From NCBI GenBank assembly GCA_031316235.1, contig JALDRA010000001.1, positions 450,001 to 482,000 of the forward strand: a DNA stretch of 32,000 nt, read 5' to 3'. The stretch is from Candidatus Scalindua sp. (GTDB lineage Bacteria; Planctomycetota; Brocadiia; Brocadiales; Scalinduaceae). The notes beneath the pieces were generated by a model, which did no database searches, was not told the DNA's origin, and was given only the letters and a program-made list of their open reading frames with translations. This document shows, piece by piece, positions 704 to 18,602 of this stretch (within the stretch, counting starts at the first letter, position 1; each line of letters starts with the position of its first letter). The position numbers and the translations under genes are program-made.

Positions 704-759
704 TATTACCATATCTACATCTTTCCTTCATCGTATCTTAATGATTGCTTTGTTATATT
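704..759 (+). promoter_or_regulatory. Phased 4-hexamer direct-repeat module plus -10 box (putative response-regulator-dependent promoter of the RND operon)
   Basis: H1 704 TATTAC, H2 715 CTACAT, H3 726 CTTCAT, H4 737 CTTAAT (starts exactly 11 bp apart), an 11-nt spacer, then TATATT at 754-759. It lies about 75 nt upstream of ATG 834. The same architecture occurs at six other sites in the window. Confidence 0.5.
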
Positions 760-833
760 AATGACAACTCATTACCAGCAGGCTTTTATTGTTTACCGGA
801 ATCTTTTACCGGTGAACTTCCGTCAACACAGGC

Positions 834-2165
834 ATGTGCAAGCGAACAGTATACAATATTCTGGTTTTTTTATCTGTATTGATTTCAACAGGCTGTGCAT
901 CGCACTATCCGCATGATCATGCATACGTATCTGATTCAATAAACGACCGGACCGGACACAATCTTGGATCAGACAATGAGATGGATGGTTTCAGACTGCC
1001 TGACGATGTTTCTCTCGCAGGCGGTCTGACAGAATATGAAGCGGTTGCAATCGCTTTATGGAATAATGCCAGATTCCAAGCAGACCTTACTGATCTCGGC
1101 TTTTCACGGGCAGATCTGATAGAAGCGGGTATGATCAGTAATCCTGAATTTACAACGCTTCTTTCGACGGGGCCGAAACAGATGGAAGCTTTCGTATTTT
1201 TGCCGCTTGTGTCGCTATGGCAGAGACCATATCAGGTATCTGCGGCAAAACTCAGCGCTGAACGCGTGGCTGAAAACCTGGTCCAGAATGGTCTCAACCT
1301 CGTTCGTGACGTTATCATGACCTACAGCGATCTTCTCTTTGCACAGAAGCGGGTAACTATTGCCGAAGAAGAAAAATATCTTGCTGAAGAAATAGCAGTT
1401 ATTGTACAGGCTCAGCTGCGGGCCGGTGACATAAGCGAGCTGGAGGAGACTACCTTTCAACTTGAAGCAGCTCAAAAACAGAGGGATCTGGTCGGTTACC
1501 GGCGTGATGCCGCTCTTTTAGGTGCGAAGTTGAAAACACTCATGGGTATGGAGCAGGAAGAAAATACCCTTACGCTAACGCCTGCTCAGATTGATGATAG
1601 CCGGACCCTCAATCTTGATGAACTCCTCACTTTAGCATATGCGGCACGGCCTGATTTACGTGCGGCAGAGATTGCTATTGAAGAAGCTGGCAAGCGTCTG
1701 GGATGGGAACGCTCAAAAATTTTCAATTTTACTGCCGTTGCGGATTATAATGAGAGGGGTACAAGCGGCCCGGAATTCGGGCCGGGCTTCAGGTTTGAAC
1801 TACCTGTCTTTAACCAGAATAATGGAAAGGTCGCACGTTCTCACGCGCAACTGGAGCTGGCAATAAGAGAGTACCTTGTTGTTAAACATGAAATAGCACT
1901 CAGGGTTCGTGAGGCCTATACAAATTATCGTGCTGCCCAGAAAGCATTGATGATACTGCGAACCAGGATATTGCGCATGGCGGCAACTGAAACACGCAAA
2001 GCTGAGAAACAGTATTCAATCGGAGAAATTTCCTATCTTGATTTTCTTGGATTCAAGCGTCGGCTTCTTGATTCACGCTTGAGAGATGCTGAATCAGAAG
2101 CTGAACTGCGCCGGTCATCGGCAGAACTCCGGCACAGTGTAGGTTTCAGGTTAGATAGTGCCTGA
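834..2165 (+). CDS. Outer-membrane efflux protein (TolC/CzcC/OprM-type OMF), lipoprotein
   Basis: 443-aa ORF. The N-terminus MCKRTVYNILVFLSVLISTGCAS has a signal peptide plus lipobox (LISTG|C). The body is long, alpha-helical and two-repeat OEP-like. It is the first gene of an OMF-MFP-RND triad. Confidence 0.85.
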   Translation: MCKRTVYNILVFLSVLISTGCASHYPHDHAYVSDSINDRTGHNLGSDNEMDGFRLPDDVSLAGGLTEYEAVAIALWNNARFQADLTDLGFSRADLIEAGMISNPEFTTLLSTGPKQMEAFVFLPLVSLWQRPYQVSAAKLSAERVAENLVQNGLNLVRDVIMTYSDLLFAQKRVTIAEEEKYLAEEIAVIVQAQLRAGDISELEETTFQLEAAQKQRDLVGYRRDAALLGAKLKTLMGMEQEENTLTLTPAQIDDSRTLNLDELLTLAYAARPDLRAAEIAIEEAGKRLGWERSKIFNFTAVADYNERGTSGPEFGPGFRFELPVFNQNNGKVARSHAQLELAIREYLVVKHEIALRVREAYTNYRAAQKALMILRTRILRMAATETRKAEKQYSIGEISYLDFLGFKRRLLDSRLRDAESEAELRRSSAELRHSVGFRLDSA

Positions 2166-2258
2166 ACGGCAACCCTGTGGTTGCAACGAACCGGTTTTAG
2201 TATAATTAAACTGTATGATCTACAACAGATCGCAATTTTCCCCTGCAAGGAGATATTT

Positions 2259-3449
2259 GTGTACAGAAGTACGTTTTCTCTCTTTTTTCTTTGTATTATC
2301 GTATGCTCCTGCAGCAGGAATGAACACCCCACAGGAGCGCCGAACACCCCGGCAAAGGTAAGTAAGGGCGTCAATGAGTCGCTGCTCACAACCGTTACCC
2401 TTACCCCGGAGGCAGAGCAGCGTCTGGGGATAGAGACTGCAGTGACAGAATATCGACAGGTGCAGGATACTTTGAGGCTCGGAGGAGAAACCATTGCACC
2501 CCCTGGTCATCAAGCCGTCATTTCCGCCCCGATGACCGGTACGATTTTCGGGATAAACAGTAATGTGCTGCTGCCTGCCGGATCCCGCGTTAAAAGGGGC
2601 CAGGCCGTCATGAACCTGCTGCTTCTCACGCCGGAGAAAGATCTTGCAGGCGCACGTGAAGCAGTTACCGTCAAACAGACTCAGCTGGAGGTTGCACAGG
2701 AGAAGGCCGTGCGCACAAAGCAGCTTTTACTCGATAAGGCGACCAGCGAGAAACTTTATACGGAGGCACAGGCAGAACTTGACAACGCAAGGGCATCTCT
2801 TACCGCAGCTGAGGCGCAGCTGGATCTCCTAAACGGCAAATGGTCTGAATCAGCACCGGAAGCTGTCTCCACGTTTGTGTTACGATCCCCTGTTGACGGA
2901 GTAATACAACACGTTCATGTTGCATCGGGTCAGACCGTTTCTCCGGCTACTCTCCTGTTCGAGGTTATCAGCCTCGATCCTCTCTGGGTACGCGTACCCG
3001 TTTATGTGGGAGACATGGCAGGGATAGACACTCAGATGGAAGCAGCCATTCATCCCCTGGGAAGTACGGGCAGCAAAACCCCTTGCATGGCAAAACCCGT
3101 AGATGGTCCCCTTCTGAGCGATCCAGCTACCGCATCGTCAGACCTCTTCTTTGAGATATCAAATCCCGGCCTCGTCTTTCGTTCGGGAGAGAGGGTAACC
3201 GTTTTACTGAAACTGCTGGGTTCAGGAGAAAGATTGGTTGTTCCCTGGTCTGCTGTACTCTATGACATCCATGGAGGAAACTGGGTTTATGTGAATACCT
3301 CACCGTACACATACGCAAGAAGGAGGGTTGAAATATCCAGCGTTATTGATGGTCTCGCTGTACTGACGAGGGGGCTTAAAAGAGGTGACGAGGTTGTTAC
3401 TACGGGAGCAGCAGAGTTATTTGGAACAGAATTTTGGGTGGGCAAATGA
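2259..3449 (+). CDS. RND efflux periplasmic adaptor (membrane fusion protein, HlyD/CzcB type), lipoprotein
   Basis: The track ORF 2181-3449 opens with TTG. I prefer GTG 2259, which is preceded by AAGGAG (2247-2252) and gives (M)[18 protein letters not shown], a lipoprotein signal. The protein has a coiled-coil hairpin ([17 protein letters not shown]...[20 protein letters not shown]) and a beta-rich C-terminus. Its stop overlaps the RND start (ATGA at 3446-3449). Confidence 0.85.
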
Positions 3450-6400
3450 TAAAATGGCTGGTTTCAACTTCACTCCGTCTGCGTGTATCCATCGTTGCAG
3501 TAACCATAATATTGTTGATTGCCGGTTCGTACACGGTGAGCAAACAAAGTTCCATTGACGTATTCCCTGAATTCGCCCCCCCCCTTGTCGAGATACAGAC
3601 AGAAGGACCCGGTCTTTCCACCTCCGAAGTTGAAACACTCATTACCATACCCGTTGAGAGTTCCATGAACGGTACCTCGTGGCTCAAGAAGATCCGGTCT
3701 AAATCAGTACTTGGTCTCTCTTCCGTCGTACTCTATTTTGATGAGGGAACCGACGTCATAGAGGCACGGCAGCAGGTCCAGGAGAGGGTATCCCGGCTTG
3801 TCAGTAAATTACCCTCTGCGGCAAAAACTCCCGTAATCCTCTCTCCCCTCTCCTCCACCAGCAGAGTTCTCAAGATAGGGCTCTCATCACAAAGACGGTC
3901 ACAGATGGAGATGACGACTGTTGCAAAGTGGACCATCAGGCCACGGCTGATGGCAATTCCGGGTGTTGCCAATGTTGCTATCTGGGGACAGCGTGACCGC
4001 CAGATCCAGGTCATCATAGACCCTGACATTCTGCATACCCACGGAGTTACCATAAACGATGTGGTTCTGTCTGTCCGCAACGCCACGTCAATCGGCGGAG
4101 GAGGATTCATCGACACACCCAACCAGCGGATTTCAGTCTCACACGTACTCACCCTGAAAACTCCGGAGGATCTTTCCTCTGTTCCGGTTGCTTTTCGTAA
4201 CGGGGTGACGCTGAAACTGGGTGACGTAGCTGAGCTGAGAGAAGGGTTTCCACCCCCCATAGGTGATGCAGTGATAAATGACGGACCGGGCCTGCTGCTG
4301 ATCGTCGAAAAAGAGCCGTGGGGAAATACCCTTGAAGTAACACAGAAAATTGAAGAGGTCCTCGATGCACTCAAGCCGGGAATTAAGGACATTGAAATAG
4401 ATTCAACAATATTTCGCCCGGCCACCTTTATCGAAATGTCACTCCACAACCTTAACAAGTCACTCCTTATCGGCTGTGTTCTGGTGATTATTATCCTGGC
4501 ATTTTTTCTCAATGAGTGGCGGACGGCCCTCATCAGTGTACTGGCTATCCCGACTTCACTTGTTATCGCTTCACTGATTCTGCACTACCGCGGAGGAACT
4601 ATTAATACCATGGTACTTGCTGGTCTTGTTATTGCACTCGGTGAACTTGTTGACGATGCCGTCATAGACGTAGAAAACATCATGCGCAGACTCCGTCTCA
4701 ACCGTGAGGCCGTCACTCCCCAACCGGCATTCATGGTTGTGCTCAATGCCTCACTTGAAGTGCGCAGTGCTGTAGTATATGGCAGCGTAATAGTCGTTTT
4801 AGTCCTCATGCCGGTTTTCTTCCTTGAGGGACTGTCCGGTTCTTTCTTTCGGCCTCTCGCTCTTTCCTACATACTGGCAATCATGTCATCCCTTTTCGTA
4901 GCCCTTACCCTCACCCCGGCATTGTCGCTTATTCTGCTGCCCGGGGCATCTCAACGCGGGGAACCCTCATTTGTAACATGGTTGAAGTCGCGTTACCGAA
5001 AAATACTTCCGGTAGTACTGTTGAGGCCGAAACGTGTTATCTCTTTTCTGGCCGGAGCCTTCATCTTGGCATTAGTCTCTCTAACCTTTCTGGGCGAAGA
5101 ATTCCTCCCCGATTTCAAAGAACACGATTTCCTGATGCACTGGGTGGAAAAACCGGGAACCTCACTGCAGGCAATGGAACGTATAACCACCCGCGTGAGT
5201 AAGGAGTTGCGTGCCATTCCCGGTGTCCGCAATTTCGGTTCACACATTGGCCGTTCTGAAGTCGCGGATGAGGTGGTAGGTCCGAATTTTGCCGAACTCT
5301 GGATCAGTATAGACCCTGAAGTTGATTACGATTCCACCGTAGCAGGAATACAGGAGGTAGTGGACGGGTATCCTGGTCTGTACAGAGATCTGCTTACGTA
5401 TCTTCGCGAGAGGATCAAGGAGGTGCTCACCGGTTCCAGCGCTACGATTGTAGTACGTATTTATGGTGACAACCTTGAAGTACTTCATGAGAAAGCCCTG
5501 GAAGTTCACGACACTATTTCCGGTGTGAAAGGGGTTTCTGACCTGAAGGTGCAGCCACAGATTATGGTACCGCAGGTAGAGGTGCATTTTCGTCCTGAAG
5601 CTGCTGCGAATTTCGGACTGAACAGCGGCATGGTTCGTGAAGCTGTTGGCTTACTATTAAATGGAATGAAAGTGGGAGAATTTTATGAAGACCAGAACAT
5701 CTTCGACGTTGTGGTAACGGGTGCCCCGCAGATTCGGGATAATCTCAGTGCCTTGCGTTCTCTCAGGATAGAGACACCTGCAGGGGGTATCGTTCCACTC
5801 AATGCTGTTGCAGACGTTGTCGTCGCCCCCACACCAGATAAGATTACACGAGAAGCCGCCTCCCGTTATACTGAAGTTACATGCAATGTACGCGATCGCG
5901 ATCTTTCTGGTGTGGCGGGTGATATTGAAAGCAGGATCACAAATATCCCCTTTGAGAGCGGTTATCACCCGGAGATCCTTGGAGAATATGCCGCTCAGGA
6001 AGCATCGAGAAACCGCATTATTGTTCTCTCAACTCTGGCCATTACCGGTATTTTCCTTATCCTGCATGTAAGTTTCAGTTCAGTAAGGCTCGCACTGCTC
6101 GTCTTCCTCGGTCTTCCATTCGCATTGATCGGAGGGGTGGTATCCGCATTTCTGGGAGGTGGTGTTCTTTCTCTTGGTTCACTCATAGGTTTTATCACGG
6201 TGCTTGGGATATCAGCAAGAAACAGTATAATGCTCATCAGTCACTATAACCACCTTCAAAGAGAAGAAGATCAGCCTTTTACTAAAGAGCTGATTGTCCG
6301 CGGTTCAATAGAACGGCTGGCACCTATCCTGATGACGGCCTTGACAACGGGCCTGGCACTCTTACCCATAATTATAGGCGGTAATCGCGCAGGCCAGGAG

Positions 6401-6520
6401 ATTGAGCATCCAATGGCAATCGTCATAATTGGCGGCCTGGTGAGCTCAACCCTGCTCAACCTGATTGTGATGCCGGTCATGTATTGGGAATTCGGTGCAA
6501 CAGACAGGGAGAGGAGTTAA
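3446..6520 (+). CDS. RND efflux permease (CzcA/CusA-like overall; substrate not assignable)
   Basis: The track ORF starts at TTG 3434; the first ATG is 3446 and gives [15 protein letters not shown]..., a typical RND N-terminus. The protein is about 1024 aa with two large periplasmic loops and 12 hydrophobic segments. TM4 reads [15 protein letters not shown]. The start is translationally coupled to the MFP gene. Confidence 0.9.
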
Positions 6521-6639: not shown

Positions 6640-6694
6640 CATTAACGGTTGTTCATCCAGACTTCATCTTATCTTCATGTTTAATTGATATAAT
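6640..6694 (+). promoter_or_regulatory. Phased 4-hexamer module plus -10 box upstream of the two-component system (putative autoregulatory promoter)
   Basis: H1 6640 CATTAA, H2 6651 GTTCAT, H3 6662 CTTCAT, H4 6673 CTTCAT, a 10-nt spacer, then a perfect TATAAT at 6689-6694. It lies about 105 nt upstream of ATG 6800. Confidence 0.55.
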
Positions 6695-6799: not shown

Positions 6800-7474
6800 A
6801 TGAAAATACTGATTGTCGAAGATGAAGTGAAATTGGCACGTTACCTGAAACAGGGTTTTGAAGAAAATTCTTTTGTAGTGGACCTTGCACATAATGGCAC
6901 TGATGGTTTACATCAGGCGGTACACGAAAGTTACGATATGATAATACTGGATATAATGCTTCCGCAGCATGATGGGATGGAAATACTTACTCGTATGCGC
7001 AGTGCCGGGATATATACCCCCGTAATCTTTCTCACCGCAAAGGATTCTATAGAAGACAAGGTAAATGGATTAAACAGCGGGGCTGATGATTATGTTATAA
7101 AACCTTTCTCTTTTCACGAATTATTAGCCCGTGTCCGCGTTTGTCTGCGAAGAGTATCAGACAAGAAAGAGGTAAAATTGAAGATAAACGGCTTGACACT
7201 TGACCCCATAGCACGAAAAGTATTTATGAAGGGTAAGAGGATAGACTTGTCACCAATTGAATTCTCCCTCCTCGAGTATATGATGCACCACTCAGGTCAG
7301 GTAGTAACACGAACAATGATTTCTGAGCATGTATGGGACTCCCATTTTGAGGGTTTCAGTAATGTTGTGGACGTACACATCGCCAAGTTAAGAGGTAAAA
7401 TAGACAAAAAACATCATAATAAACTCATACATACGGTAAGGGGAGTTGGCTATGTTCTCGAAGAACGCGACTAA
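6800..7474 (+). CDS. OmpR/PhoB-family response regulator (receiver plus winged-helix DNA-binding domain)
   Basis: MKILIVEDEVKLARYLKQ...MIILDIMLP... forms the receiver domain. The C-terminus ...VVDVHIAKLRGKID...IHTVRGVGYVLEE is a winged helix. ATG 6800 is preferred over the track start 6737, which would add 21 non-homologous residues. Confidence 0.9.
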   Translation: MKILIVEDEVKLARYLKQGFEENSFVVDLAHNGTDGLHQAVHESYDMIILDIMLPQHDGMEILTRMRSAGIYTPVIFLTAKDSIEDKVNGLNSGADDYVIKPFSFHELLARVRVCLRRVSDKKEVKLKINGLTLDPIARKVFMKGKRIDLSPIEFSLLEYMMHHSGQVVTRTMISEHVWDSHFEGFSNVVDVHIAKLRGKIDKKHHNKLIHTVRGVGYVLEERD

Positions 7475-8888
7475 ATTTTACCAATCAATCTGTTTTAAAA
7501 TTACGGTATGGTATTCAGTATCTATTTTCATAATATTGATTACAGCCGGAGGATTTCTGTATTTCCGATTAACGCATAAGCTGAATAAGGAAGTTAACCT
7601 TATACTCTTTGACGAAAGCGGAGAAGTATTGCAGGATATCATGGAGAAGAAATTCACACAGAACAGCTTAAAAGATGCGATAGAAATGGAAGCTTCTGAT
7701 GAGAAATACTTTAAGGTATCTGCAAGAGTGCTTGATATGGAACAGAACACCCTGATCACTTCAGCAAACTTTTTCGCACCAGACTTAAAGATTTCTGAAA
7801 GATCTATTGGAAATGCTGAAAAAGGTACGGTCACATTTGATACGATACGGGTTCAAGGCAGAGAATCTCCCTACCGCCTGATAACAAGGCCTGTATATCT
7901 TGACAACTCCCTGAAGTATCTCCTTCAGGTGGCTATCTACCTGAAGCCGACACAGAAAATAGTTGAAAATCTGGAAGAAAATTTCGCGATGCTGATACCT
8001 GTGCTCACGATAATCACCGTTCTTTGCGGATGGCTCATTGCAAAGCGGAGTTTAGCTCCCATCAAAGGCATAAACAAAATGACGCAAACAATAACGGCAT
8101 CTAATTTAAGTAAGAGGTTACACGCTACCCATACCGGGGATGAATTGGATACATTAACAGGCACCATTAACAATATGCTCGACAGGCTGGAGAATTCCTT
8201 TAAAAGAACAAGGCAGTTTTCCTCTGATGCGTCTCATGAACTCAGGACTCCCATTGCTTCCCTCAAAACCGGAATTGAAGTCACACTTTCAAAGAATAGA
8301 ACCACTGAAGAGTATTGTGTACTACTCATAAACAATTTAAGAGTATTAGAGAGGATGACCAGGCTGGTCAATGATTTATTAGAACTATCCAGAACAGATT
8401 CAGACGTTAACGTATTAGACATGAAATTGATCAATCTAGCCGATATCCTGAAGGATCAGCATGAGAAATTCATGCTGATATCGGAATCAAGGAACATAAA
8501 GATCCTCATGAACGAGGTACCAGACATGCATATCCTGGGGGATGAGGCTCTCTTGCGGCGTCTCTTCTGCAATCTGCTTGACAATGCCGTTAAATATACT
8601 TCCTCCGGAGACCATGTCACTATCTCTCTGGAAGAGAGAGGCAGAGAGATTTTCGTCCGTATTGAAGATACGGGTATCGGTATCCCTGAGACAGATCTTG
8701 AAAAGATTTTTGACCGTTTCTTCCGTGTCGACCCGTCACGTACCAGAGAAACTGGCGGGAGCGGTTTAGGACTGAGTATCTGCAAAAATATCGTAGCACT
8801 CCACAGAGGTACCATTGGAGTAGAAAGTAAAATAAACTCCGGTACTACGGTTACCGTACATCTTCCCAGAAATCACCCTCAATCCTGA
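7452..8888 (+). CDS. Sensor histidine kinase (2 TM, periplasmic domain, HAMP, HisKA, HATPase_c; CusS/PmrB-like class)
   Basis: The H-box is FSSDASHELRTPIASL; the N box is LLDNAVKYT; the G boxes are EDTGIGIP and GGSGLGLSI. Two hydrophobic segments flank a periplasmic region of about 130 aa. The track start 7446 is TTG; the first ATG is 7452. The gene overlaps the 3' end of the RR gene. Confidence 0.9.
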   Translation: MFSKNATKFYQSICFKITVWYSVSIFIILITAGGFLYFRLTHKLNKEVNLILFDESGEVLQDIMEKKFTQNSLKDAIEMEASDEKYFKVSARVLDMEQNTLITSANFFAPDLKISERSIGNAEKGTVTFDTIRVQGRESPYRLITRPVYLDNSLKYLLQVAIYLKPTQKIVENLEENFAMLIPVLTIITVLCGWLIAKRSLAPIKGINKMTQTITASNLSKRLHATHTGDELDTLTGTINNMLDRLENSFKRTRQFSSDASHELRTPIASLKTGIEVTLSKNRTTEEYCVLLINNLRVLERMTRLVNDLLELSRTDSDVNVLDMKLINLADILKDQHEKFMLISESRNIKILMNEVPDMHILGDEALLRRLFCNLLDNAVKYTSSGDHVTISLEERGREIFVRIEDTGIGIPETDLEKIFDRFFRVDPSRTRETGGSGLGLSICKNIVALHRGTIGVESKINSGTTVTVHLPRNHPQS

Positions 8889-9568: not shown

Positions 9569-11212
9569 ATGAATAAAAAGCTATTGTTCAGTTTATCTCT
9601 ACTATTTCTTCTCTTGTACATGGTACCGCTCAATGTACGCCCTGTTAACACACCGGACGAGACTCGATACGGAGAAATCTCCCGGGAAATGCTGATTACC
9701 GGAGACTTTATTGTTCCCCGGTTGAACGGGCTGAGATATTTTGAAAAACCGGTCCTTGGATACTGGCTGAATGCCGCATCCATGGCTCTGTTCAGCGATA
9801 ATGGTTTTGCTGTTCGTTTCCCATCTGCTCTTGCGGTTGGGCTTACCGCCATGATAATATTTTTACTTGTTCGTCGCTTTCATGGATACGATAAAACCGC
9901 ATTGTTGTCCGCCTTCATCTATATAACATTTATTGTTGTATACGGTGTTGGCACCTTATGCGTGATGGACAGCCTGCTGACTTTTTTCCTGACCGCAGCG
10001 ATGGGCTGTTTTTTTGTTGCCAGCACCAACACGACTGTGAGGAATCGAAACGTGTGGTTATTGCTCTGCGGGGTTTTCTGCGGTGCGGCTTTTCTGACAA
10101 AAGGTTTCCTCGCATTTGCCCTGCTGACGTTGACGGTGATTCCATTCCTGTTGTGGAATAGACGCGGAAGGGATATGTTCACCCTATTGTGGCTTCCTCT
10201 CCTCGCCGCCGTGGCTGTTTCGCTTCCCTGGTGCCTGATGATTGCCTCGCGTGAGCCAGATTTCTGGCGCTATTTTTTCTGGAACGAACATGTACAGCGC
10301 TTTCTCTCGGCAGACTCCAGCATGCATGCTCAGCCGTTCTGGTCCTTGATTCCGGTCTTCCTTGCCGGTGCGTTTCCCTGGATACTGGTCACTCCCATGG
10401 CTATTAGCCAATATAAACGTGAACTTCTCCGTAAACCGCTGATTCGTTTCTCTCTCTGCTGGATGGCTTTTTCGCTGGTGTTCTTTTCGGCTTCTTCAGG
10501 CAAACTAATTGCATATATTCTACCCTGTTTTCCTCCACTGGCAGTGCTTATTGCAATTGGTCTTACCGAATATTTCCGGAGTGGCAGCAAAAGAATGTTC
10601 CACTATTGTACCGTTTTGTCGATTATCATAACGGGCCTGATGGTTACTGCATTGCTTCTCATCGCGTTTACGCCTGCTCTGCACTGGAGGATTTACGGCA
10701 CAGAAGAGGGGCATAAACTGTGGTATTGCGTCTTCGGGGCGGTGTTGTGCCTTGTGATTATGATTAAGACTGTGCGGACACAGGACAGGCTGTGGAAAAC
10801 GGCTACACATGGACTCTCAGCCACCGCCATAATGCTGGTATTTCCTTTCGCTGTGCCGGTAGATAATTTTACCCATGCTGGAATGACAACTTTTCTGGAT
10901 TCTCAGAAAGATCACATAACTACGGATACATTCCTGATATCGGATTACCGAACAGTGCAGGCTGTCTGTTATACTTATAAACGTAAAGACGCCTATCTTT
11001 TTCTCAACAGCGGTGAACTCAGTTACGGGGTGTCCTATCCGGACAGCTCCTGCCGTTCCATCGATACTACCGGCCTGAAAAACCTTCTGCACGAGCGCAA
11101 CCGCCAGGTAGCAATTATCATAAAGGAAACCACGAAGTTAAGAGCCAATCTACCCTGGCCAGAGCCAATATATCAAACTATCTGGAAAGACTACTGGTTT
11201 GCGATATACTAA
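9569..11212 (+). CDS. arnT: Undecaprenyl-phosphate-L-Ara4N:lipid A 4-amino-4-deoxy-L-arabinosyltransferase (ArnT, GT-C/GT83)
   Basis: 547-aa polytopic protein, colinear with E. coli ArnT as I recall it: PDETRYGEISREML (Ec PDETRYAEISREML), LRYFEKPVLGYW (Ec LRYFEKPIAGYW), REPDFWRYFFWNEHVQRF (Ec REPNFWHYFFWVEHIQRF), GELSYGVSYPD (Ec GELKYGLNYPD). Confidence 0.9.
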   Translation: MNKKLLFSLSLLFLLLYMVPLNVRPVNTPDETRYGEISREMLITGDFIVPRLNGLRYFEKPVLGYWLNAASMALFSDNGFAVRFPSALAVGLTAMIIFLLVRRFHGYDKTALLSAFIYITFIVVYGVGTLCVMDSLLTFFLTAAMGCFFVASTNTTVRNRNVWLLLCGVFCGAAFLTKGFLAFALLTLTVIPFLLWNRRGRDMFTLLWLPLLAAVAVSLPWCLMIASREPDFWRYFFWNEHVQRFLSADSSMHAQPFWSLIPVFLAGAFPWILVTPMAISQYKRELLRKPLIRFSLCWMAFSLVFFSASSGKLIAYILPCFPPLAVLIAIGLTEYFRSGSKRMFHYCTVLSIIITGLMVTALLLIAFTPALHWRIYGTEEGHKLWYCVFGAVLCLVIMIKTVRTQDRLWKTATHGLSATAIMLVFPFAVPVDNFTHAGMTTFLDSQKDHITTDTFLISDYRTVQAVCYTYKRKDAYLFLNSGELSYGVSYPDSSCRSIDTTGLKNLLHERNRQVAIIIKETTKLRANLPWPEPIYQTIWKDYWFAIY

Positions 11213-11469: not shown

Positions 11470-12216
11470 ATGAATAAAGATACAATTTTTGCAGATAAGA
11501 AAAATAGCATGTCTGACTTTAATTTTGGAAAGGAGACTGCGGCGGTATTTGATGATATGCTTGAAAGATCTGTCCCTTTCTATAACGAAATACAGAGGAT
11601 GTTATGCGAAATAGCGGTGGATTTTGCGGCGGACGGCACTCATGTCTATGATTTAGGGTGCTCCACAGGTACCACCCTTTTAAATATCTGTAAGGCGGTA
11701 AAAAAAGATGTCAGATATATCGGGATAGATTATTCACAAGACATGCTGAACAGGTGCAGAGTAAGGTTTTCTGAAAGCAAGGTAACAAAAGAATACTCTC
11801 TTACCTGCATGGACTTAAACAATGGGATTAATATCACAAACGCATCTGTTGTCATTATGAATCTGACACTGCAGTTTGTGCGTCCTTTGCACAGGGACCA
11901 TATAATAAAGAATATTTATAACGGTTTGTGTGAAAACGGCTGTTTAATCCTCATTGAAAAAGTGCTGGGCAACAACTCTGACTTTAACAGGATGTTCATA
12001 AAATACTACTATGAGATGAAGAAAAGAAATGGATATACTGAACTGGAGATATCACAAAAGAGAGAGGCGTTAGAAAATATTCTCATACCATACCGGTTAG
12101 ATGAGAACAGGGACCTCTTAAAAAAAGCAGGTTTTGACCACTGCGATACGTTCTTCAAATGGTATAACTTTTGTGGTCTGGTAGCATTGAAAAGCAGTTT
12201 GCACTCTCAAAAATAA
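11470..12216 (+). CDS. cmoA: CmoA-like class I SAM-dependent enzyme (carboxy-S-adenosyl-L-methionine synthase homologue)
   Basis: 248 aa, colinear with E. coli CmoA as I recall it: FDDMLERSVPFYNEI (Ec FPDMIQRSVPGYSNI), VYDLGCSTG (Ec VYDLGCSLG), NASVVIMNLTLQF (Ec NASMVVLNFTLQF), NGYTELEISQKREALENI (Ec NGYSELEISQKRSMLENV), KKAGFDH...YNFCGLVALK (Ec HKAGFEH...FNFGSLVALK). No cmoB-like gene is present in the window. Confidence 0.7.
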   Translation: MNKDTIFADKKNSMSDFNFGKETAAVFDDMLERSVPFYNEIQRMLCEIAVDFAADGTHVYDLGCSTGTTLLNICKAVKKDVRYIGIDYSQDMLNRCRVRFSESKVTKEYSLTCMDLNNGINITNASVVIMNLTLQFVRPLHRDHIIKNIYNGLCENGCLILIEKVLGNNSDFNRMFIKYYYEMKKRNGYTELEISQKREALENILIPYRLDENRDLLKKAGFDHCDTFFKWYNFCGLVALKSSLHSQK

Positions 12217-12558
12217 TATGTCTGCTACCCAACCTGGACAGGCCAGAACTAAACAGGAGTTAATAAATAACAAATTTCAAATCACAAACTACAAACAAAT
12301 TCCAATATATGAAATAATATACTAACTTGTTTGTTTTAAAAATAGTTCTTGAGATTTTCTTAATATAAAGAGAAACGTTTTTGGCAGACTGGATTTGTTT
12401 GTGCTTCTAAATCATATTGTTTGGACATTTTGAACTTAATTAATTGGAATTTGTTTGTTATTTGGATTTTATTATTTGGTGCTTGTTAGACGTTCTAAAG
12501 AATTTGTTTTAATAATTTTTTTGACAAAATTGGTTAAAATATTCTTATTAAGAGACTA

Positions 12559-13335
12559 ATGAAGAGCATGAGTGAAATTAAAATACCCTACGGTACAGGC
12601 TTTTTCAGAAAGTCTATGATAAATACCGGCAACATTCTGTTTCGATATAGAAATACGATGTTTTTCATGGTTGGAATCATATTGTTCATCAGCACAAAAC
12701 CAGAATTTATCTTTGAGAGTACGTTTTATGACAATTGTATGGATGTTGCCGGCTTTGCCGTAGCTGTAACCGGACAGATATTGAGGGCTTTGGTGATAGG
12801 CAAAGACTACATCAAAAGAGGAGGAAAAGATAATAAGATGATGGCGAACCGGTTAGTGCAGGGAGGCCTCTTTGCCCATTCCCGTAATCCCCTCTACTTT
12901 GGGAATATCTTGATTATCATTGGCCTGGGTATCATCTATAATTCAGTCTTGGGATATATTACTTCGTATAGTTTCTTCGTCTTTGGATATTTGGCCATTG
13001 TTATGGCTGAGGAAGATTTTCTGAGAACAAAGTTTGGTGTGGAGTACGAGGAATATTGTAAGAGGGTGCCCAGATTTATTCCACGATTTGCCGGAATCAG
13101 AAATACACTGAGTAATGGAGGTTTCGACTGGTTACGTTTCCTAAGGAAGGAATACAACATGATTTGCATATGGGTCGGTAGCGCTATCATTTTAAGGATA
13201 TGGGCAGAGATTCTCCATTTCGGATACGCCGCCAGGAAAAGGGACATATTGGTCATGTCTATATGCCTTATTCCGATTTTAATTTTTTACTGTGTAACAC
13301 GTTATTTGAAAAAAAATAAAAAACTTTCCACGTAG
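12559..13335 (+). CDS. ICMT/PEMT-family integral-membrane methyltransferase (Ste14/LmtA-like)
   Basis: 258-aa protein with multiple TM segments. It carries the family signature LVQGGLFAHSRNPLYFGNILIIIGL followed by AEEDFLRTKFGVEYEEYCKRVPRFIP. Confidence 0.75.
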   Translation: MKSMSEIKIPYGTGFFRKSMINTGNILFRYRNTMFFMVGIILFISTKPEFIFESTFYDNCMDVAGFAVAVTGQILRALVIGKDYIKRGGKDNKMMANRLVQGGLFAHSRNPLYFGNILIIIGLGIIYNSVLGYITSYSFFVFGYLAIVMAEEDFLRTKFGVEYEEYCKRVPRFIPRFAGIRNTLSNGGFDWLRFLRKEYNMICIWVGSAIILRIWAEILHFGYAARKRDILVMSICLIPILIFYCVTRYLKKNKKLST

Positions 13336-13483
13336 GTCCTGCCTGCTCGTCATAATACCAAATTTACTGGTTAATTTTTCGACTGTTATCTCTTATCCTT
13401 CCTGTCACGGAAGAAACATCCACCTGTATTTGTTATAGGTAAGAAGTGGGAGTTTTTCACTCGGTACCAATTAAATTTAAAAA

Positions 13484-14449
13484 ATGAAACAATACAAAAA
13501 ACTCCTGCTCTTATTTTTAACTATAATAATTCTTAGTTGTATTCTTGCTCCTCTCGTAAAAATACCTCTGGATTTTATGTTAGAAAAAGGAGAATTTTTT
13601 GCAGATAGTGTGGACTATGAAAATGGCACATATGATTTTGGCAAGGTAATGAGGCGACTATTAATGCTCGCTGCATTGATAGTGTTTGTGATTTTAAGAA
13701 AGTCTCTGAAAATTTACCCCCTAATGGCTTTAGGCATGAAGCAGAGGTCTGGATGTTTCAGGAAATTTCTTTTTGGCTTCCTAATGGCCATAATTTCGCT
13801 GCTAATTTACTACTCTCTTGCACTGTTTTTCGGTGCATGGATAGTTCACATAGATTATCATTTAGTTGGAATTGTAATATCTAAAATTATCAAATATCTT
13901 TTAGTCGGCTGTCTTATAGGTCTCATTGAAGAGATATTTTTTAGAGGTTTTGTCTTGCAATTCTTTATGAAGGACATGTCCGTAGCAATTGCCGTATGTG
14001 CAACCAGCGCGATTTACTCTGTTCTTCACTTTTTCCAGTCTGAAGTTCTTGTTACCAGAGGGTTTCAGCCATTTGTCGGTTTAATCACTATGTCACATTT
14101 TTTTAAACCTCTTTTTCTTCAATTCATAGAAAACCTGTCTTCAATCATTGGCCTTTTTTTGGTTGGTGTGGTGCTTTCTTATGCATTTCTTCTATCAAAA
14201 TCATTATACCTTTCTATAGGCTTGCACTCAGGATGGGTATTCATGATGAAGGCTGACAGCCTCTTCCTTGTTCGGGTTCGAGAGAAGTATGAGTGGGTTT
14301 TTGGTAATAGTAATCAGTTAGTGACAGGTTTTATTGTATGGGCTTCTCTGATATACGTCTTGTTTATAATAAAGAAGGTTTATCGTAATACTCATAATTC
14401 CGGAGCATATCTCAAATCATCCGATTCAGGCCAGAATTCTTTCAGATGA
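13484..14449 (+). CDS. CPBP-family intramembrane glutamic endopeptidase (CAAX protease / Abi family)
   Basis: 321-aa polytopic protein. Motif 1 is LIEEIFFRGF (EExxxR), motif 2 is SAIYSVLHFF (FxxxH) and motif 3 is IGLHSGWVF (H-containing helix). Confidence 0.75.
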   Translation: MKQYKKLLLLFLTIIILSCILAPLVKIPLDFMLEKGEFFADSVDYENGTYDFGKVMRRLLMLAALIVFVILRKSLKIYPLMALGMKQRSGCFRKFLFGFLMAIISLLIYYSLALFFGAWIVHIDYHLVGIVISKIIKYLLVGCLIGLIEEIFFRGFVLQFFMKDMSVAIAVCATSAIYSVLHFFQSEVLVTRGFQPFVGLITMSHFFKPLFLQFIENLSSIIGLFLVGVVLSYAFLLSKSLYLSIGLHSGWVFMMKADSLFLVRVREKYEWVFGNSNQLVTGFIVWASLIYVLFIIKKVYRNTHNSGAYLKSSDSGQNSFR

Positions 14450-14517
14450 AACACATCTGACGCAAACTTAATTTCGTCAACAACAAGTCTTCTTGTTTAT
14501 CCGCAAAAAAACATCTC

Positions 14518-14572
14518 CATTAACATTTCCTCATCTCCCATTCATCATAACTTAATTTTTAATTGGTATAGT
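14518..14572 (+). promoter_or_regulatory. Phased 4-hexamer module plus -10 box upstream of GT-C paralogue 2
   Basis: H1 14518 CATTAA, H2 14529 CCTCAT, H3 14540 ATTCAT, H4 14551 CTTAAT, a 10-nt spacer, then TATAGT at 14567-14572. It lies about 44 nt upstream of ATG 14616. Confidence 0.55.
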
Positions 14573-14615
14573 ATGAAACTTATTTAACCTATTGATTTAT
14601 TCCTGTTTCTAGTAA

Positions 14616-16406
14616 ATGGCAAAACTTCAATCTATCTGTCCTGACAAGCGAAGCAGAGATCTTGTTATTCTGTTCGTAGGTGGTTTACTCGTGTATTTTA
14701 TGAACATTGGTTCCCTTCCGTTATCTCATTCCGAAGACCGTTGGGGTGAGATTGCAAGGGAAATGGAGCTTTCAAATAATTGGTATACCCCGACGATAAA
14801 TGGAGAAATTTATTGGGACAAACCAATCTTATCTTATTGGGCGATCCTTGGCGTTAAAAAGATCATCGGGAGTCCTCAGCTCAGCGAATGGATAATTCGT
14901 TTTCCGACTCTTCTGGCCAGCTTCCTCATTCCATTCCTTATGTATGATCTTACCTCTTTTTTCTTTAACCGCAAGATTGGTCTAACCGGCGCTTTGATAA
15001 TCTTAACATCCTTTCAAATGTATCAGATTGGACGTGTGGCATCCTCGGACATGTTGAACCTGCTACTTTTTCTGACATCACTTTGGATCTATTTTAAGAC
15101 CGTTCAGAAAAACCGTGGTTTCTGGTGGTGGTTGCTGCTGGGCTTTATTATAGGAGTCAATTGCCATATCAAAGGGTTGATTGGAGTGCTTCCGTATCTG
15201 GTTATCTTGAGTCACAGGATTTTCAGCCATGGTTTCAAATCTCTCTCCCGGGAATTCTTATTCCGTTTTTCTCTAAGTACCTTCCTGGCAGGGACTATTT
15301 ATCTGGGTATGTGGTGCTGGATACTTGGAGATGTAATCAATACAATAAGCGGAATATATACCTATCTGATCTCTGGTTCGGCGGATGCTCTACCTTTACC
15401 GTTACGCATGGTTATACAGGAAAATCTAAACAGAGTTGCTACTGATTCAATAGACCATAAGAATCCTCCATGGATTTATCTGGAAGCGCCCTTCTCTTTT
15501 CTATTTCCCTGGTCTCTCTTTTTACCGGGTGCATTGGTCACATGGTGGCGGGACAGAAAAATGACAAAGGATAAAAAAGAACCATTCGGGATCTGGTTTT
15601 TTTCTCTCCTCATCTTTTTCTCCTTAATGTCTTCAAGAAGGCCGTATTATCTTTTACCGGCCATACCAGCTGCTGCGGTTCTTATTGCCGTGCATATCCA
15701 TCTGCTGATTAAATGTGATGAAACCAGCGGCATATCCGGCAACTTAAGAAAAAGAAGTGTGTTCATATACGGACTTTTACTGACATGTCTGGTTTTCACT
15801 ATGGGAGCCTTGCTTATTTTTGTTTCCGGTTCTGTTCCTGAGAGACTCAATTCTGTCTATTTGTATCCGTCGGGCATAGCTTCTTTTGTTATTGGAGGAA
15901 CGCTTTTGGTTGTTGCCGTAAAGAAGAGTTTTTCTACGGTAATTAATACCTTCACCGTTTTTTTAATTCTTCTTATTATTGTCGTAAACTTAAGTCTTCC
16001 GGATATCGGAAATAATTCTACTTTCAGAGAATTTACGAAAATAGTGAATGAGAAAACTTTAAACAAAAGAGTTGTTCTTTTTCTAGTAGATAACGCCAAA
16101 CTTATATACGGACTGGAGCATCCACCTTATCCATGTGTTCCTTCTGAGGTAAATGCATCTCCGGAAGAGTCAGTGAGACAACTTGTCGAAGAAACTGCTC
16201 CTGGTGATTTTGTTTTGTTAGAAAAGAGAAACCTTTCCCTTCTTTCAAGATTGAATTATGAACTCATACTTGAGGAACTACCCAATCCCTCCTACCTGAA
16301 GATGGAATGGAAAAACGGACCAAAAATTATTCCCAACGAAAACCATATCAAGAAGAAAACATTACTCTTATTACGTATTCTTAACCATGACTCCCAAAAG
16401 AAATAG
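14616..16406 (+). CDS. ArnT/PMT-family GT-C glycosyltransferase (paralogue 2, acceptor unknown)
   Basis: 596-aa polytopic protein. The first periplasmic loop, HSEDRWGEIAREMELSNNWYTP...IYWDKPILSYW, reproduces the ArnT/PMT_2 D-E-x-R...E-I-x-R-E and [FW][ED]KP motifs. It has a soluble C-terminal domain of about 130 aa. Confidence 0.8.
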   Translation: MAKLQSICPDKRSRDLVILFVGGLLVYFMNIGSLPLSHSEDRWGEIAREMELSNNWYTPTINGEIYWDKPILSYWAILGVKKIIGSPQLSEWIIRFPTLLASFLIPFLMYDLTSFFFNRKIGLTGALIILTSFQMYQIGRVASSDMLNLLLFLTSLWIYFKTVQKNRGFWWWLLLGFIIGVNCHIKGLIGVLPYLVILSHRIFSHGFKSLSREFLFRFSLSTFLAGTIYLGMWCWILGDVINTISGIYTYLISGSADALPLPLRMVIQENLNRVATDSIDHKNPPWIYLEAPFSFLFPWSLFLPGALVTWWRDRKMTKDKKEPFGIWFFSLLIFFSLMSSRRPYYLLPAIPAAAVLIAVHIHLLIKCDETSGISGNLRKRSVFIYGLLLTCLVFTMGALLIFVSGSVPERLNSVYLYPSGIASFVIGGTLLVVAVKKSFSTVINTFTVFLILLIIVVNLSLPDIGNNSTFREFTKIVNEKTLNKRVVLFLVDNAKLIYGLEHPPYPCVPSEVNASPEESVRQLVEETAPGDFVLLEKRNLSLLSRLNYELILEELPNPSYLKMEWKNGPKIIPNENHIKKKTLLLLRILNHDSQKK

Positions 16407-16419
16407 GAAACTAATTGCC

Positions 16420-16571
16420 ATGAAAAAAAAGGAGTGGTCGGTTTATCTTTCCAGTTTCTTTTGTTGTACATAGCGCCACTGAATGCATGTTTTGTTGCTG
16501 CACCTGATGAAATGCGATACGGAGAGATAGCCCGGGAATTGCCTGAGAGAAAAGCTACACAAATTGATTAA
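16420..16571 (+). pseudogene. Frameshifted 5' remnant of an arnT-type gene
   Basis: ATG 16420 gives MKKKEWSVYLSSFFCCT*. Shifting one frame from about 16449 gives ...FLLLYIAPLNACFVAAPDEMRYGEIARELPERKATQID* (stop 16569-16571). Compare arnT (9569): MNKKLLFSLSLLFLLLYMVPLNVRPVNTPDETRYGEISREML. Only about 45 N-terminal codons survive. Confidence 0.7.
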
Positions 16572-16682
16572 GGTACATCAATTCTGGAGCAATCCTCAAA
16601 TCACCAGGGTTAGCATAAGATTATCATCCCCGCAAACGCTGTATCACCATTCATTTCATACATCCAGGTTACATAAGTTTCA

Positions 16683-16738
16683 CATTAATACAATTTAATT
16701 ACACTATCATCTTCTCTTAATGTTGCTTTTGATAGACT
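16683..16738 (+). promoter_or_regulatory. Phased 4-hexamer module plus -10 box upstream of GT-C paralogue 3
   Basis: H1 16683 CATTAA, H2 16694 TTTAAT, H3 16705 TATCAT, H4 16716 CTTAAT, an 11-nt spacer, then TAGACT at 16733-16738. Confidence 0.5.
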
Positions 16739-16825
16739 CGGAAAATTCATTTTCAGAATTATTGAAAATAGTACCTTCGAGTAATGATATCTTCTTACCT
16801 TCTCAAAGGAGTCAGGGAAAATAGT

Positions 16826-18523
16826 ATGAAACGTGTGCTGAAAATTACTGTCACATTGCTCCATTCCCGATACTGGTTAGTGTTAATGCTCCTAGCCGTG
16901 TCCTTTGTGGGGATATTTGACCATGACCTCTGGACATCCGATGAACCCCGTGTTGCTGAAATCGGGAGAGAATTTCTTGACGATGACGCTTCTCTCGCTG
17001 TACCGACGCTTGGCAGAGAGCCATTTCTGGAAAAGCCACCTCTCTATTTCTGGTGCGTGGCCCTCTCTTACAAGACCTTTGGAGGCCCATCGGCCAGTGC
17101 CGCCAGAATCCCTTCTGTATTCTTCGGACTTGGGACTCTTCTCTTTACCTATCTCCTTGCCAGGAAAATGTATGGCAGAAACAGTGCTCTCTGGTCATGT
17201 ATGGTCCTTGCCTTAAGCACTGAATACTTTACTATTACGCATAAATCACTCGTGGATATCTCTCTTGTATTTTTTGTGACAGGGACCGTTTACTGGCTCT
17301 ATCTGGCACTGACTGAGAAGAAAGATAAAAAAATGATCTATTATGCCCTGTGCTATCTCTTCGCCACCGGTGCTTTTTTTACGAAGGGATTTCTGGGCCT
17401 TGCGCTCCCAGCCCTGGTTTTTATCTGTTCGATAGCATGGACAAGGCAATGGAGTGAGCTAAAAAAAGCCAGGCTCTGGATGGGTTTCCTTATTGTTGGT
17501 GCTGGAATCAGCCTCTGGCTTTCTGACCTCTGGAAGGAAGGTTCCTGGGAATATATCAGTACATTCCTGGTGCATAACAACCTGCAGCGTTTTATGCCCG
17601 GGACGGGATATTCCGGGGGGCACGAAAAGCCATTTTATTACTACATGTGTGTGTATTGGAGTGCGTTTGCACCGTGGAGTGTATTGACACCCGCCATACT
17701 CCTCTATATCTGCCGTAAAGGGTTCCAGGAGAAGCAGATACTCTTTCCTGTTTTGTGGTTTCTCTCAGGCTTCCTCCTGCTCTCACTTGCCGAGACAAAG
17801 CGCTCTATCTATATTGTACCTCTTTTACCCCCCATTTCGATACTTACGGGTGCATGGTTCAGTGATTTGGAGACCCGCAGGGCTGAAGGCCGGTTAGATA
17901 GAGCCGGCCAGTGGTGTATCATCGGTATCTCTGTCATGTGCGTTGTTTTATTTCCCGTATTGGCTTTTAAGTACGACTTGTATAAGAGTGTTACGTTTAT
18001 TGTATTCATGCCCGTAATTCTCATTGGTTCTATCGCTCCCATTCACTCATTTATCAGGTGCAGGGTTATTAAGCTATATGGATTACCCATACTTTTGAGC
18101 ATGCTGTATCTCTCTTTTGTACTGGTTTCCTATCCATACATTAATAAGCACAAATCAATGAAACCTTTTTGTGATACCCTGGGCAGACTACAGGCAGTAA
18201 AAGGAAAAACTATCTATGCCTTCTGCCCCGATGAGACCACAGAGGCGGTAATACCATTCTATACCGGTAATTATGTCACACCGATCTGGGAGCTGGAGGA
18301 GATGAAAGCTGTTGGAAGAGAGAGAGATGCACTGGTCCTTGTTGTAGACAAACACGAGAACAGACCTCTCTATAACAGTCTCAGTGAACTGTTTTGCAAC
18401 ACCATCGTTTCAGGACAGACAGGAAGAAGGCGTATGGTGCTGCTCAGTAATTTCAGTACATTAAACCATGAAGAGGAGCACTACACCTCCATATTCGGGA
18501 ACATGAATAAAGGAACCAATTAA
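16826..18523 (+). CDS. ArnT/PMT-family GT-C glycosyltransferase (paralogue 3, tandem pair member)
   Basis: The track ORF starts at ATG 16784. ATG 16826 (MKRVLKITVTLLHSRYWLVLMLLAVSFVGIFDHDLW) aligns with the N-terminus of the downstream paralogue. Motifs are SDEPRVAEIGREF and PFLEKPPLYFW. The protein is polytopic with a soluble C-terminal domain. Confidence 0.8.
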   Translation: MKRVLKITVTLLHSRYWLVLMLLAVSFVGIFDHDLWTSDEPRVAEIGREFLDDDASLAVPTLGREPFLEKPPLYFWCVALSYKTFGGPSASAARIPSVFFGLGTLLFTYLLARKMYGRNSALWSCMVLALSTEYFTITHKSLVDISLVFFVTGTVYWLYLALTEKKDKKMIYYALCYLFATGAFFTKGFLGLALPALVFICSIAWTRQWSELKKARLWMGFLIVGAGISLWLSDLWKEGSWEYISTFLVHNNLQRFMPGTGYSGGHEKPFYYYMCVYWSAFAPWSVLTPAILLYICRKGFQEKQILFPVLWFLSGFLLLSLAETKRSIYIVPLLPPISILTGAWFSDLETRRAEGRLDRAGQWCIIGISVMCVVLFPVLAFKYDLYKSVTFIVFMPVILIGSIAPIHSFIRCRVIKLYGLPILLSMLYLSFVLVSYPYINKHKSMKPFCDTLGRLQAVKGKTIYAFCPDETTEAVIPFYTGNYVTPIWELEEMKAVGRERDALVLVVDKHENRPLYNSLSELFCNTIVSGQTGRRRMVLLSNFSTLNHEEEHYTSIFGNMNKGTN

Positions 18524-18524
18524 C

Positions 18525-18602
18525 CATTAACATATCTTAATCTTTCCTTCATAATTTATTAACCTTTGCTTCACCATTTCTTAATGCTTGACTTTATATA
18601 CT
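18525..18602 (+). promoter_or_regulatory. Extended phased hexamer array plus -10 box upstream of GT-C paralogue 4
   Basis: 18525 CATTAA, 18536 CTTAAT, 18547 CTTCAT, (18558 ATTAAC), 18569 CTTCAC, 18580 CTTAAT, all on an 11-bp register. The -10 box is TATATA at 18595-18600 or TATACT at 18597-18602. The array starts 2 bp after the stop of the upstream paralogue. Confidence 0.5.

Follow-up and report, generated by a model that had tools for sequence, protein, structure and literature searches.

In a 32,000-nucleotide stretch of DNA from Candidatus Scalindua sp., an anammox bacterium of the Brocadiales (contig JALDRA010000001.1, positions 450,001 to 482,000; the whole stretch is referred to as the window), we found seven copies of a 43-bp module of four phased half-sites, each copy placed just upstream of a -10 box. 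The modules occur far beyond chance expectation, have a fixed geometry, and are conserved together with a response regulator across species and phyla. Judged from sequence, they are probably the operators of the CusR/CopR-family regulator encoded at positions 6800-7474 of the window (itself a 100% match to a Candidatus Scalindua sp. protein), placed as the sites of a class II activator would be. We describe the operator as an extended form of the CusR/CopR box, in which an inverted pair of half-sites is followed by two phased direct half-sites, at promoters that lack a -35 hexamer and for the most part have an extended -10 box. We infer binding, its stoichiometry, and activation rather than repression. 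In what follows, H1 denotes the distal hexamer of a module and H4 the promoter-proximal one, RR the response regulator, and HK the histidine kinase of the same two-component system (TCS).

Seven phased modules beside -10 boxes

All seven modules are intergenic and on the plus strand, with a start codon 40-150 nt downstream. They are listed here with their -10 boxes, the promoters to which they are assigned, and their scores against a position weight matrix (PWM); GT-C stands for glycosyltransferases of that class, and OMF, MFP and RND for the outer membrane factor, membrane fusion protein and resistance-nodulation-division pump of an efflux system.

704..759, plus strand: module 1 with a TGn-extended -10 box TATATT (754-759); predicted OMF-MFP-RND promoter; H1 inverted at 705-710, H2 at 715, H3 at 726, H4 at 737; 36.5 bits
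6640..6694, plus strand: module 2 with an extended -10 box TATAAT (6689-6694); RR-HK promoter, predicted to be autoregulatory; 27.6 bits
9364..9419, plus strand: module 3 with TGn and TATATA (9414-9419); predicted promoter of the arnT-like GT-C gene; 36.6 bits
11348..11402, plus strand: module 4 with an extended -10 box TATAAT (11397-11402); predicted promoter of the cmoA-like gene; 41.9 bits
14518..14572, plus strand: module 5 with an extended -10 box TATAGT (14567-14572); predicted promoter of GT-C paralogue 2; 36.8 bits
16683..16738, plus strand: module 6 with an extended -10 box TAGACT (16733-16738); predicted promoter of GT-C paralogue 3; 17.5 bits, the weakest copy
18525..18602, plus strand: module 7 with a -10 box TATACT (18597-18602); predicted promoter of GT-C paralogue 4 and arnB; hexamers at 18525/6, 18536, 18547, 18558, 18569 and 18580; 21.0 bits, with a second register at 38.1 bits

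The hexamers and -10 boxes of the seven copies read exactly as they had been listed in an earlier note on this stretch, and hexamer starts are spaced by 11 bp in all of them. At site 7 the hexamers of that list are present; an in-phase hexamer that it had skipped, ATTAAC at 18558, makes this site two overlapping modules with a 22-bp offset (starts 18525 and 18547). When the copies are anchored on H4, 7 nt are conserved per unit and the consensus is CATTAAC-ATTT-yTTmATC-TnTnC-CTTCAYC-nTnT-CTTAATG-tTT. The description of the module as four direct repeats did not survive. H1 reads (C)ATTAAC, which is H4 (GTTAATG) in reverse complement, and in direct register it is a poor match to the other hexamers; with H2 (module positions 11-16) it forms, from module positions 1-6 and across an N4 spacer, a 6-4-6 inverted repeat ATTAAC-N4-yTTmAT. 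Only H2, H3 and H4 are direct repeats, with H3 (CTTCAT) and H4 (CTTAAT) following at 11-bp steps. In all seven copies the starts of H2, H3 and H4 are exactly 11 bp apart and the centres of H1 and H2 are 10 bp apart.

We read the window on both strands with the 43-bp PWM, scoring each site by leaving it out of the matrix. The seven sites scored 17.5-41.9 bits, no other position in the window, whichever the strand, exceeded 8.9, and 100 random 32-kb Markov-1 sequences gave a maximum of 15.9 bits and a mean of 5.5. A degenerate 39-nt pattern matched five sites as against 0.00 expected from 100 dinucleotide shuffles, and an independent search for repeats returned the module as repeat family D3, which comprised six of the seven sites together with the second register of site 7. 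As the earlier note had stated for arnC and for the minus-strand genes, no full or half module above 15 bits was present in the window upstream of arnC or of any minus-strand gene; the same held for the PEMT-like and Rce1-like genes. Scans with half-modules (H1H2 alone or H3H4 alone) gave no isolated pair above 15 bits in the window.

Averaged over pairs of copies, identity reached 0.73 for the heptamer columns and 0.46 for the spacers, and was at the background level of 0.27 for the 40 bp flanking the module on each side. The products of the GT-C genes are 24-28% identical in pairs, save for paralogues 3 and 4 (64%). The combination of high half-site identity, flanks at background, and targets that are for the most part unrelated or old paralogues argues for selection on a binding site rather than for recent copying, as had been proposed from the differing spacers. 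We therefore find it barely credible that the module spread as a promoter cassette together with its genes, or that it is a generic promoter, UP-element or alternative-sigma form with no dedicated regulator. The 64% identity of GT-C paralogues 3 and 4 does mean that at least one promoter may have duplicated with its gene, and the T-rich spacers would suit a generic promoter or an UP-element; on the other side, the window's other promoters lack the module, and four phased half-sites spread over 40 bp are unlike a -35 element.

Each module ends 10-11 bp upstream of its -10 box. TAnnnT starts at H4+16 or H4+17 in six of the seven sites, site 3 having TATATA at +17, and six of the seven -10 boxes are extended by TG, site 7 being without it. 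None of the seven promoters was called in a scan for the sigma70 -35/-10 consensus, and no recognisable -35 hexamer was found in them. Promoters of this kind should be weak without an activator, and the result of the scan is consistent with activator dependence. The geometry bears out the earlier comparison with OmpR/PhoB-type replacement of the -35 element. (Note that a scan of the whole window against Rfam matched no family; thus the 40-150-nt leaders hold no known riboswitch.)

The same position has to be considered as one of repression, in which the regulator would bind and, by occupying -60 to -20, would block RNA polymerase until a signal arrives. The sites do overlap the -35 region, and some members of the OmpR family act as repressors from there, for example PhoP at amtB (PMC11825685). 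We nevertheless regard repression as very unlikely, since seven promoters with no recognisable -35 should be weak by themselves, since the same geometry activates in PhoB, PmrA, AgrR and CusR, and since an autoregulatory site of identical layout fits positive feedback.

The candidate regulator and operators of its family

The regulator, its kinase and the adjacent efflux operon are encoded as follows.

6800..7474, plus strand: response regulator of the CusR/CopR family (224 aa), the candidate for binding the modules; Pfam receiver (PF00072) and winged-helix (PF00486, Trans_reg_C) domains
7452..8888, plus strand: sensor histidine kinase of 478 aa; two transmembrane (TM) segments, a periplasmic domain of ~140 aa, and HAMP, HisKA and HATPase domains (Pfam)
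834..6520, plus strand: efflux operon downstream of module 1; OMF at 834-2165, MFP at 2181-3449, RND at 3434-6520

The regulator scores 280.1 with the NCBIfam model TIGR01387, 'heavy metal response regulator', and so passes its cutoff of 279.2, and the kinase passes TIGR01386 (308.9 against 292.55). Identity of the regulator to E. coli proteins is 50% for CusR and 37% for BasR. Membership of the PmrA/BasR family was considered and rejected on that 37% identity and on model NF007928, against which the regulator scores 197.2 where the cutoff is 330. Thus the passing of both heavy-metal TCS models, the 50% identity to CusR and the failure of the PmrA model together indicate a system of CusR/CopR type and not PmrAB. 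Among solved structures the best match was Thermotoga DrrD (1kgs), which was no help on DNA specificity.

Family membership and signal are separate questions in this case. The best model for the RND pump is CusA/CzcA (TIGR00914), with 601 bits against a cutoff of 701. In the fourth TM segment (TM4) the pump has a DD pair, which, going by the motifs described for RND pumps, we take to be a multidrug-type and not a CzcA/CusA signature. A heavy-metal efflux (HME) class for the pump was accordingly not supported (HME cutoff missed, TM4 of DD type). The periplasmic domain of the kinase, ~140 residues in length, is acid-rich and contains one His and no Cys. In both respects the system differs from CusRS: the pump is without the HME signature, and the kinase is without an obvious CusS-like set of ligands. 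Some form of envelope or cation stress is the putative signal; a classical response to copper, silver or zinc finds no support.

The closest likeness to the module is found among the boxes of CusR, CopR, PcoR and AgrR, with which it shares the family models of the regulator, the 6-4-6 inverted geometry, and an OMF-MFP-RND operon as neighbour (as in cusCFBA and czcCBA). The footprinted AgrR box of Cupriavidus is ATKACA-N4-TGTMAT (PMC7380067). Some AgrR operators add in-phase direct half-sites that aid binding and activation, and AgrR sites show a class II position and autoregulation (PMC7380067). The half-site of the window, yTTmAT, agrees with TGTMAT at four of six positions, and variants of the module from Brocadia, Kuenenia and Omnitrophota have ATTACA as H1. 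Compared by sequence layout only, the cusR-cusC intergenic region of E. coli K-12 reads ATGACA-ATTT-TGTCAT-TTTTC-TGTCAC-CGGAA-AATCAG towards cusC (locus L090, 3013-3067). E. coli PcusC shares the layout of the Scalindua module: a third half-site, TGTCAC, lies 11 bp downstream of the CusR box, and a weak fourth, AATCAG, lies 11 bp further on. A TAAAGT hexamer is found 11 bp past AATCAG, again towards cusC.

Several features set the Scalindua modules apart from these boxes. The half-site is (C/T)TT(A/C)AT here and TGT(A/C)AT there, and every copy has four half-sites, whereas the CusR and AgrR boxes are an inverted repeat with optional extras. Seven operators lie within 19 kb, whereas the E. coli genome has one CusR box. 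Moreover, the predicted targets are genes for 4-amino-4-deoxy-L-arabinose (Ara4N) addition, GT-C enzymes and methyltransferases instead of genes for copper, silver or zinc resistance. The predicted wiring of the CusRS family to Ara4N, GT-C and cmoA genes in an anammox bacterium is new; the class of mechanism is well established.

The earlier note had likened the proximal pair of hexamers to the PmrA/BasR box. The pmra-box is XTTAAY-N5-XTTAAY and overlaps the -35 (PMC10570014). The likeness stands for H4, which fits XTTAAY in six of the seven copies; it fails for the regulator, which does not pass the PmrA model and whose nearest operators are those of CusR and AgrR. As at the arn (pbgP) promoter of PmrA/BasR, a TCS site would take the place of the -35 at Ara4N genes and at the system's own promoter, and H4 (CTTAAT) fits. 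H3, in contrast, is CTTCAT (TTCAY in all copies), and there are two extra half-sites upstream, one of them inverted. The predicted regulon also differs from that of PmrA in including an RND pump, three extra GT-C genes and the cmoA/methyltransferase block, and in lacking a separate site for arnC, arnA and arnD. The Scalindua circuit, as predicted, thus works like PmrA-arn but stands outside that family.

With the pho box of PhoB and with PhoP, the module shares half-sites on an 11-bp register that replace the -35, the proximal half-site ending ~10 bp before the -10 box. M. tuberculosis PhoP binds as tandem dimers with four DNA-binding domains, the proximal dimer lying over the -35 (PMC11825685). 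In those systems all half-sites are direct, head-to-tail, whereas the distal one is inverted here, and both the subfamily and the regulon are different. The site of Synechocystis CopR, TTCAT-N4-5-TTCAT (PMC4182526), has the TTCAT core that is seen in H3 and in several copies of H2 and H4, and that regulator has in common with the Scalindua one the broad family and the pairing of RND efflux with its own operon. It is described, in contrast, as a two-repeat site of the cop operons only, with neither an inverted half-site nor envelope targets.

Conservation of the module and the question of paralogues

Orthologous regulators, 73-86% identical to that of the window, are encoded in Scalindua AMX11/SCAELEC01, in S. 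japonica and in another Scalinduaceae genome. In these three lineages the module lies directly upstream of RR-HK and of OMF-MFP-RND (44-56 bits), and it is kept even where the order of the two operons is reversed, as it is in two of the genomes. In AMX11 the cmoA block and a GT-C gene are likewise preceded by it. Site by site, orthologues were found for module 1 upstream of OMF (L003, L006, L007, L061, L062, L077), for module 2 upstream of RR (L003, L006, L007, L024, L033, L046, L048, L056, L067), for module 4 upstream of cmoA (L003/L072 and L028, with variants in L034 and L059), for module 5 upstream of genes like GT-C paralogue 2 (L051, L061), for module 6 in L072/L003 and for module 7 in L063.

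We also scanned a collection of 185,579 species-representative genomes with the strict pattern ATNANNRNWWNTNMAYYNNNNNNTCAYNNTNNSTTMATG, which recovers 12 of 17 known sites and for which an estimated ~9-57 matches would be expected by chance. The scan returned 79 loci, about a third of them in Brocadiales and many in Nitrospirota, Verrucomicrobiota and Omnitrophota; the window's own species was not among the matches. In the Brocadiales loci, the genes downstream of the module were again those for the regulator, OMF, cmoA or GT-C, and among the non-redundant matches 26 of 59 had an RR homologue, an HK homologue or both within the 8-kb locus. In other phyla the downstream genes are of envelope type and not of metal type: a PEMT/ICMT methyltransferase, a phosphoenolpyruvate mutase, a phosphodiesterase/EEP-domain protein, YceI, a methyltransferase followed by a GT-C gene, and a protein with DUF3413 and a sulfatase domain, which we take to be YejM-like. 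The module thus stays with orthologous operons, and with RR-HK pairs in several phyla, which supports the earlier proposal that OmpR-family sites join efflux, TCS and envelope genes into one predicted regulon.

The half-sites themselves vary between lineages. The Nitrospirota form, CATGAAG-AATT-CTTCAT...CTTCAT...CTTCATG, is a perfect palindrome followed by two direct repeats. Position 3 of H1 (T/G) covaries with position 4 of H4 (A/C) among the non-redundant matches (15/10/5/26); the search pattern had left both positions free. In Verrucomicrobiota and in similarly binned metagenome-assembled genomes (L014, L026, L057, L075, L082), a variant GATGAAC..TTTTTCATCC..GTTCAT..GTTCATG is divergent from the RR gene and lies upstream of a gene for a conserved secreted protein of ~950-1,000 aa without a Pfam match.

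These results bear on the generic-promoter alternative considered above. Among species representatives of Scalindua the strict pattern occurs at most four times per genome, always in a TCS/efflux/GT-C region; in SCAELEC01 all four matches fall on one 92-kb contig, in a region homologous to L003. Hundreds of matches would be expected of a generic form of promoter, and the related Scalindua genomes thus speak against the refuting outcome foreseen in the earlier note, in which the module would turn out to be the usual form of promoter. Furthermore, the module follows RR-HK across phyla, with its inverted and direct half-sites changing in step.

The recognition helix of the regulators is not the same in all these groups.

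Scalindua and its closest Brocadiales orthologues: SNVVDVHIAKLR
Brocadia, Kuenenia and some Omnitrophota: TNVIDVFVNRLR
Verrucomicrobiota: TNVIDVTVYHLR
Nitrospirota: TNIVDAHIRALR
E. coli CusR: TNAIDVAVKRLR

A different question is which regulator would occupy the modules. The 5.1-Mb Brocadiales genome ERZ25071401 encodes three or more RR-HK pairs paralogous to that of the window (65-68% identity to the window's regulator), and at their own loci these have closely similar modules, upstream of genes for P-II, dCache, LysM and B12-radical SAM proteins (L087 8114-8156; L088 3571 and 4510; L089 4541, 5842, 8258 and 11911). The earlier caveat that a paralogue might be the binder was therefore justified. 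(In the same genome one module follows a kinase gene and faces minus-strand genes, beside genes for an ammonium transporter/P-II and for bc1/multihaem (HAO-like) proteins.) The CusR-like regulator family appears to be expanded in anammox bacteria. It follows that a CusR-like paralogue with its gene at another place in the genome might be the main binder of the window's modules, or a further one; the locus would then be cross-regulated, or common to more than one TCS.

We consider this explanation unlikely, though less so than repression or a generic promoter. In its favour are the near-identical modules that the paralogous pairs of ERZ25071401 have at their own loci, upstream of unrelated genes, and a recognition helix that is the same in the aligned orthologues and paralogues. 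Against it, the module is kept upstream of the orthologous RR-HK genes and of the adjacent efflux operon in every Scalindua lineage examined, and orthologous sites keep TTCAY at H3 and TTAAT at H4, whereas the paralogue locus L089 has TTAAT/ATAAT at H3.

Assignment of the modules to the CusR/CopR-family regulator at 6800-7474 thus remains the reading that we prefer, and a number of points weigh against it. The paralogues in ERZ25071401, with their similar modules, and the helix that they share with the orthologues (SNVVDVHI[A/S]KLR, identical in all those aligned) make it insecure to assign all seven sites to this one regulator. The regulator passes TIGR01387 by a margin of only 0.9 bit. The statistic for covariation of H1 and H4 (Fisher p = 9e-4) ignores phylogeny, and the matches outside Brocadiales include the 9-57 that were estimated to arise by chance. 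Finally, a metal signal is doubtful in view of the DD motif of the pump, its score below the HME cutoff, and the one His and absence of Cys in the periplasmic domain of the kinase.

Predicted targets and the proposed circuit

Downstream of the TCS, the window encodes the following predicted targets.

9569..11212, plus strand: arnT-like GT-C glycosyltransferase; Pfam PMT; NCBIfam ArnT model 486 bits, below the cutoff of 567
11470-12216, plus strand: cmoA-like synthase of carboxy-S-adenosyl-L-methionine (Cx-SAM); passes the CmoA model TIGR00740 (244.6 against a cutoff of 193.3)
12559-13335, plus strand: PEMT/ICMT-family membrane methyltransferase; LmtA model 86.6 bits, below cutoff
13484-14449, plus strand: Rce1/CPBP-like protease, in the module 4 block
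14616-16406, plus strand: GT-C paralogue 2, predicted target of module 5
16784-18523, plus strand: GT-C paralogue 3, predicted target of module 6
18723-20351, plus strand: GT-C paralogue 4, predicted target of module 7
20355-21521, plus strand: arnB-like aminotransferase, in the module 7 unit
21796..25779, plus strand: arnC-like gene, split arnA and arnD-like gene, making a complete Ara4N set; no module of their own

Note that the arn assignments rest on matches to hidden Markov models, several of them below equivalog cutoffs. The arnA function is split over two genes 170 bp apart, one for the formyltransferase (22755-23678) and one for the UDP-glucuronate decarboxylase (23849-24901). In the gap between arnB and arnC (21522-21795) no terminator-like site was predicted, and read-through from module 7 is thus possible; membership of arnC, arnA and arnD in the regulon would depend on it, and is possible to that extent.

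The cmoA-like gene is probably co-transcribed with the PEMT/LmtA-like and Rce1-like genes. No module lies in the internal gaps of this block (11470-14449), module 4 being the sole one, and the block of cmoA, methyltransferase and protease genes is kept across Scalindua and Brocadia (L003 at 15208-18062, L028 and L034; also L059). The gap between the cmoA-like and PEMT-like genes (12217-12558, 342 bp) is AT-rich and contains four or five copies of (A/G)ATTTGTTTG; a similar run, TTTGTTTG, is found in module 4 between H4 and the -10 box. The pairing of a cmoA-like gene with a methyltransferase that matches LmtA weakly is a recurrent target of the module; LmtA is the lipid A 1-phosphate methyltransferase of Leptospira. 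The pairing hints at a Cx-SAM-dependent carboxymethylation of an envelope lipid. A search of the literature gave nothing relevant on CmoA linked to lipid modification, nor on the regulation of Ara4N or lipid A in anammox bacteria.

The window also contains three copies of a structured intergenic element of ~125 bp, a repeat family that has no relation to the module. They lie in the arnB-arnC gap (21527-21666, plus strand, with a 27-nt insertion), in the gap between an M90 peptidase gene and an M50 protease gene (26837-26950, plus strand), and, reversed, directly after the arnT stop codon (11212-11272, minus strand). The copies share blocks of 93% and 84% identity, and the RNA fold of one copy has an energy of -47 kcal/mol (z = -3.5). 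The element looks like a repetitive extragenic palindromic (REP) sequence or a miniature inverted-repeat transposable element (MITE).

In the circuit that we propose, the kinase (7452-8888) would phosphorylate the regulator, and two dimers of it, with four DNA-binding domains, would then fill one module, the four half-sites being presented on one face of the DNA. The domains at H3 and H4 would substitute for the -35 contact and recruit RNA polymerase containing sigma70. Seven units would in this way be induced together: the RND pump, the TCS itself (by positive feedback), arnT, the cmoA block and three more GT-C units, the last of which also carries arnB.

A broader proposal is more tentative, and we think it less likely than not. 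It holds that a CusR-like lineage found in Brocadiales, in other members of the PVC group (Planctomycetota, Verrucomicrobiota, Chlamydiota), in Nitrospirota and in Omnitrophota may have nothing to do with metal resistance and may instead control a regulon for remodelling of the envelope that has not been described before, as a functional analogue of PmrAB that would have arisen from CusRS. It would act through a fixed four-half-site operator, implying a tetramer of the regulator whose DNA-binding domains are arranged in a mixture of head-to-head and head-to-tail contacts. In Scalindua, such a regulon would mean that an envelope lipid is modified (carboxymethylated) in a Cx-SAM-dependent way and that this is co-induced with Ara4N addition and several additional GT-C glycosyltransferases.

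Because anammox bacteria are available neither in pure culture nor for genetic manipulation, almost nothing is known of their gene regulation. The locus described here offers a concrete candidate regulon, in which a single sensor and a single regulator would act on seven promoters through a 43-bp operator, and the prediction that follows from it is that the outer membrane of Scalindua would gain aminoarabinose and other decorations, together with efflux, as a single response. The comparison between genomes suggests that an inverted pair followed by phased direct half-sites beside a -10 box is general for CusR/CopR-type regulators across several phyla. For many of the proteins that bear the annotation 'heavy metal response regulator', the actual targets may be envelope genes, and such a role, if true, would affect both automated annotation and the inference of regulons in metagenome-assembled genomes.

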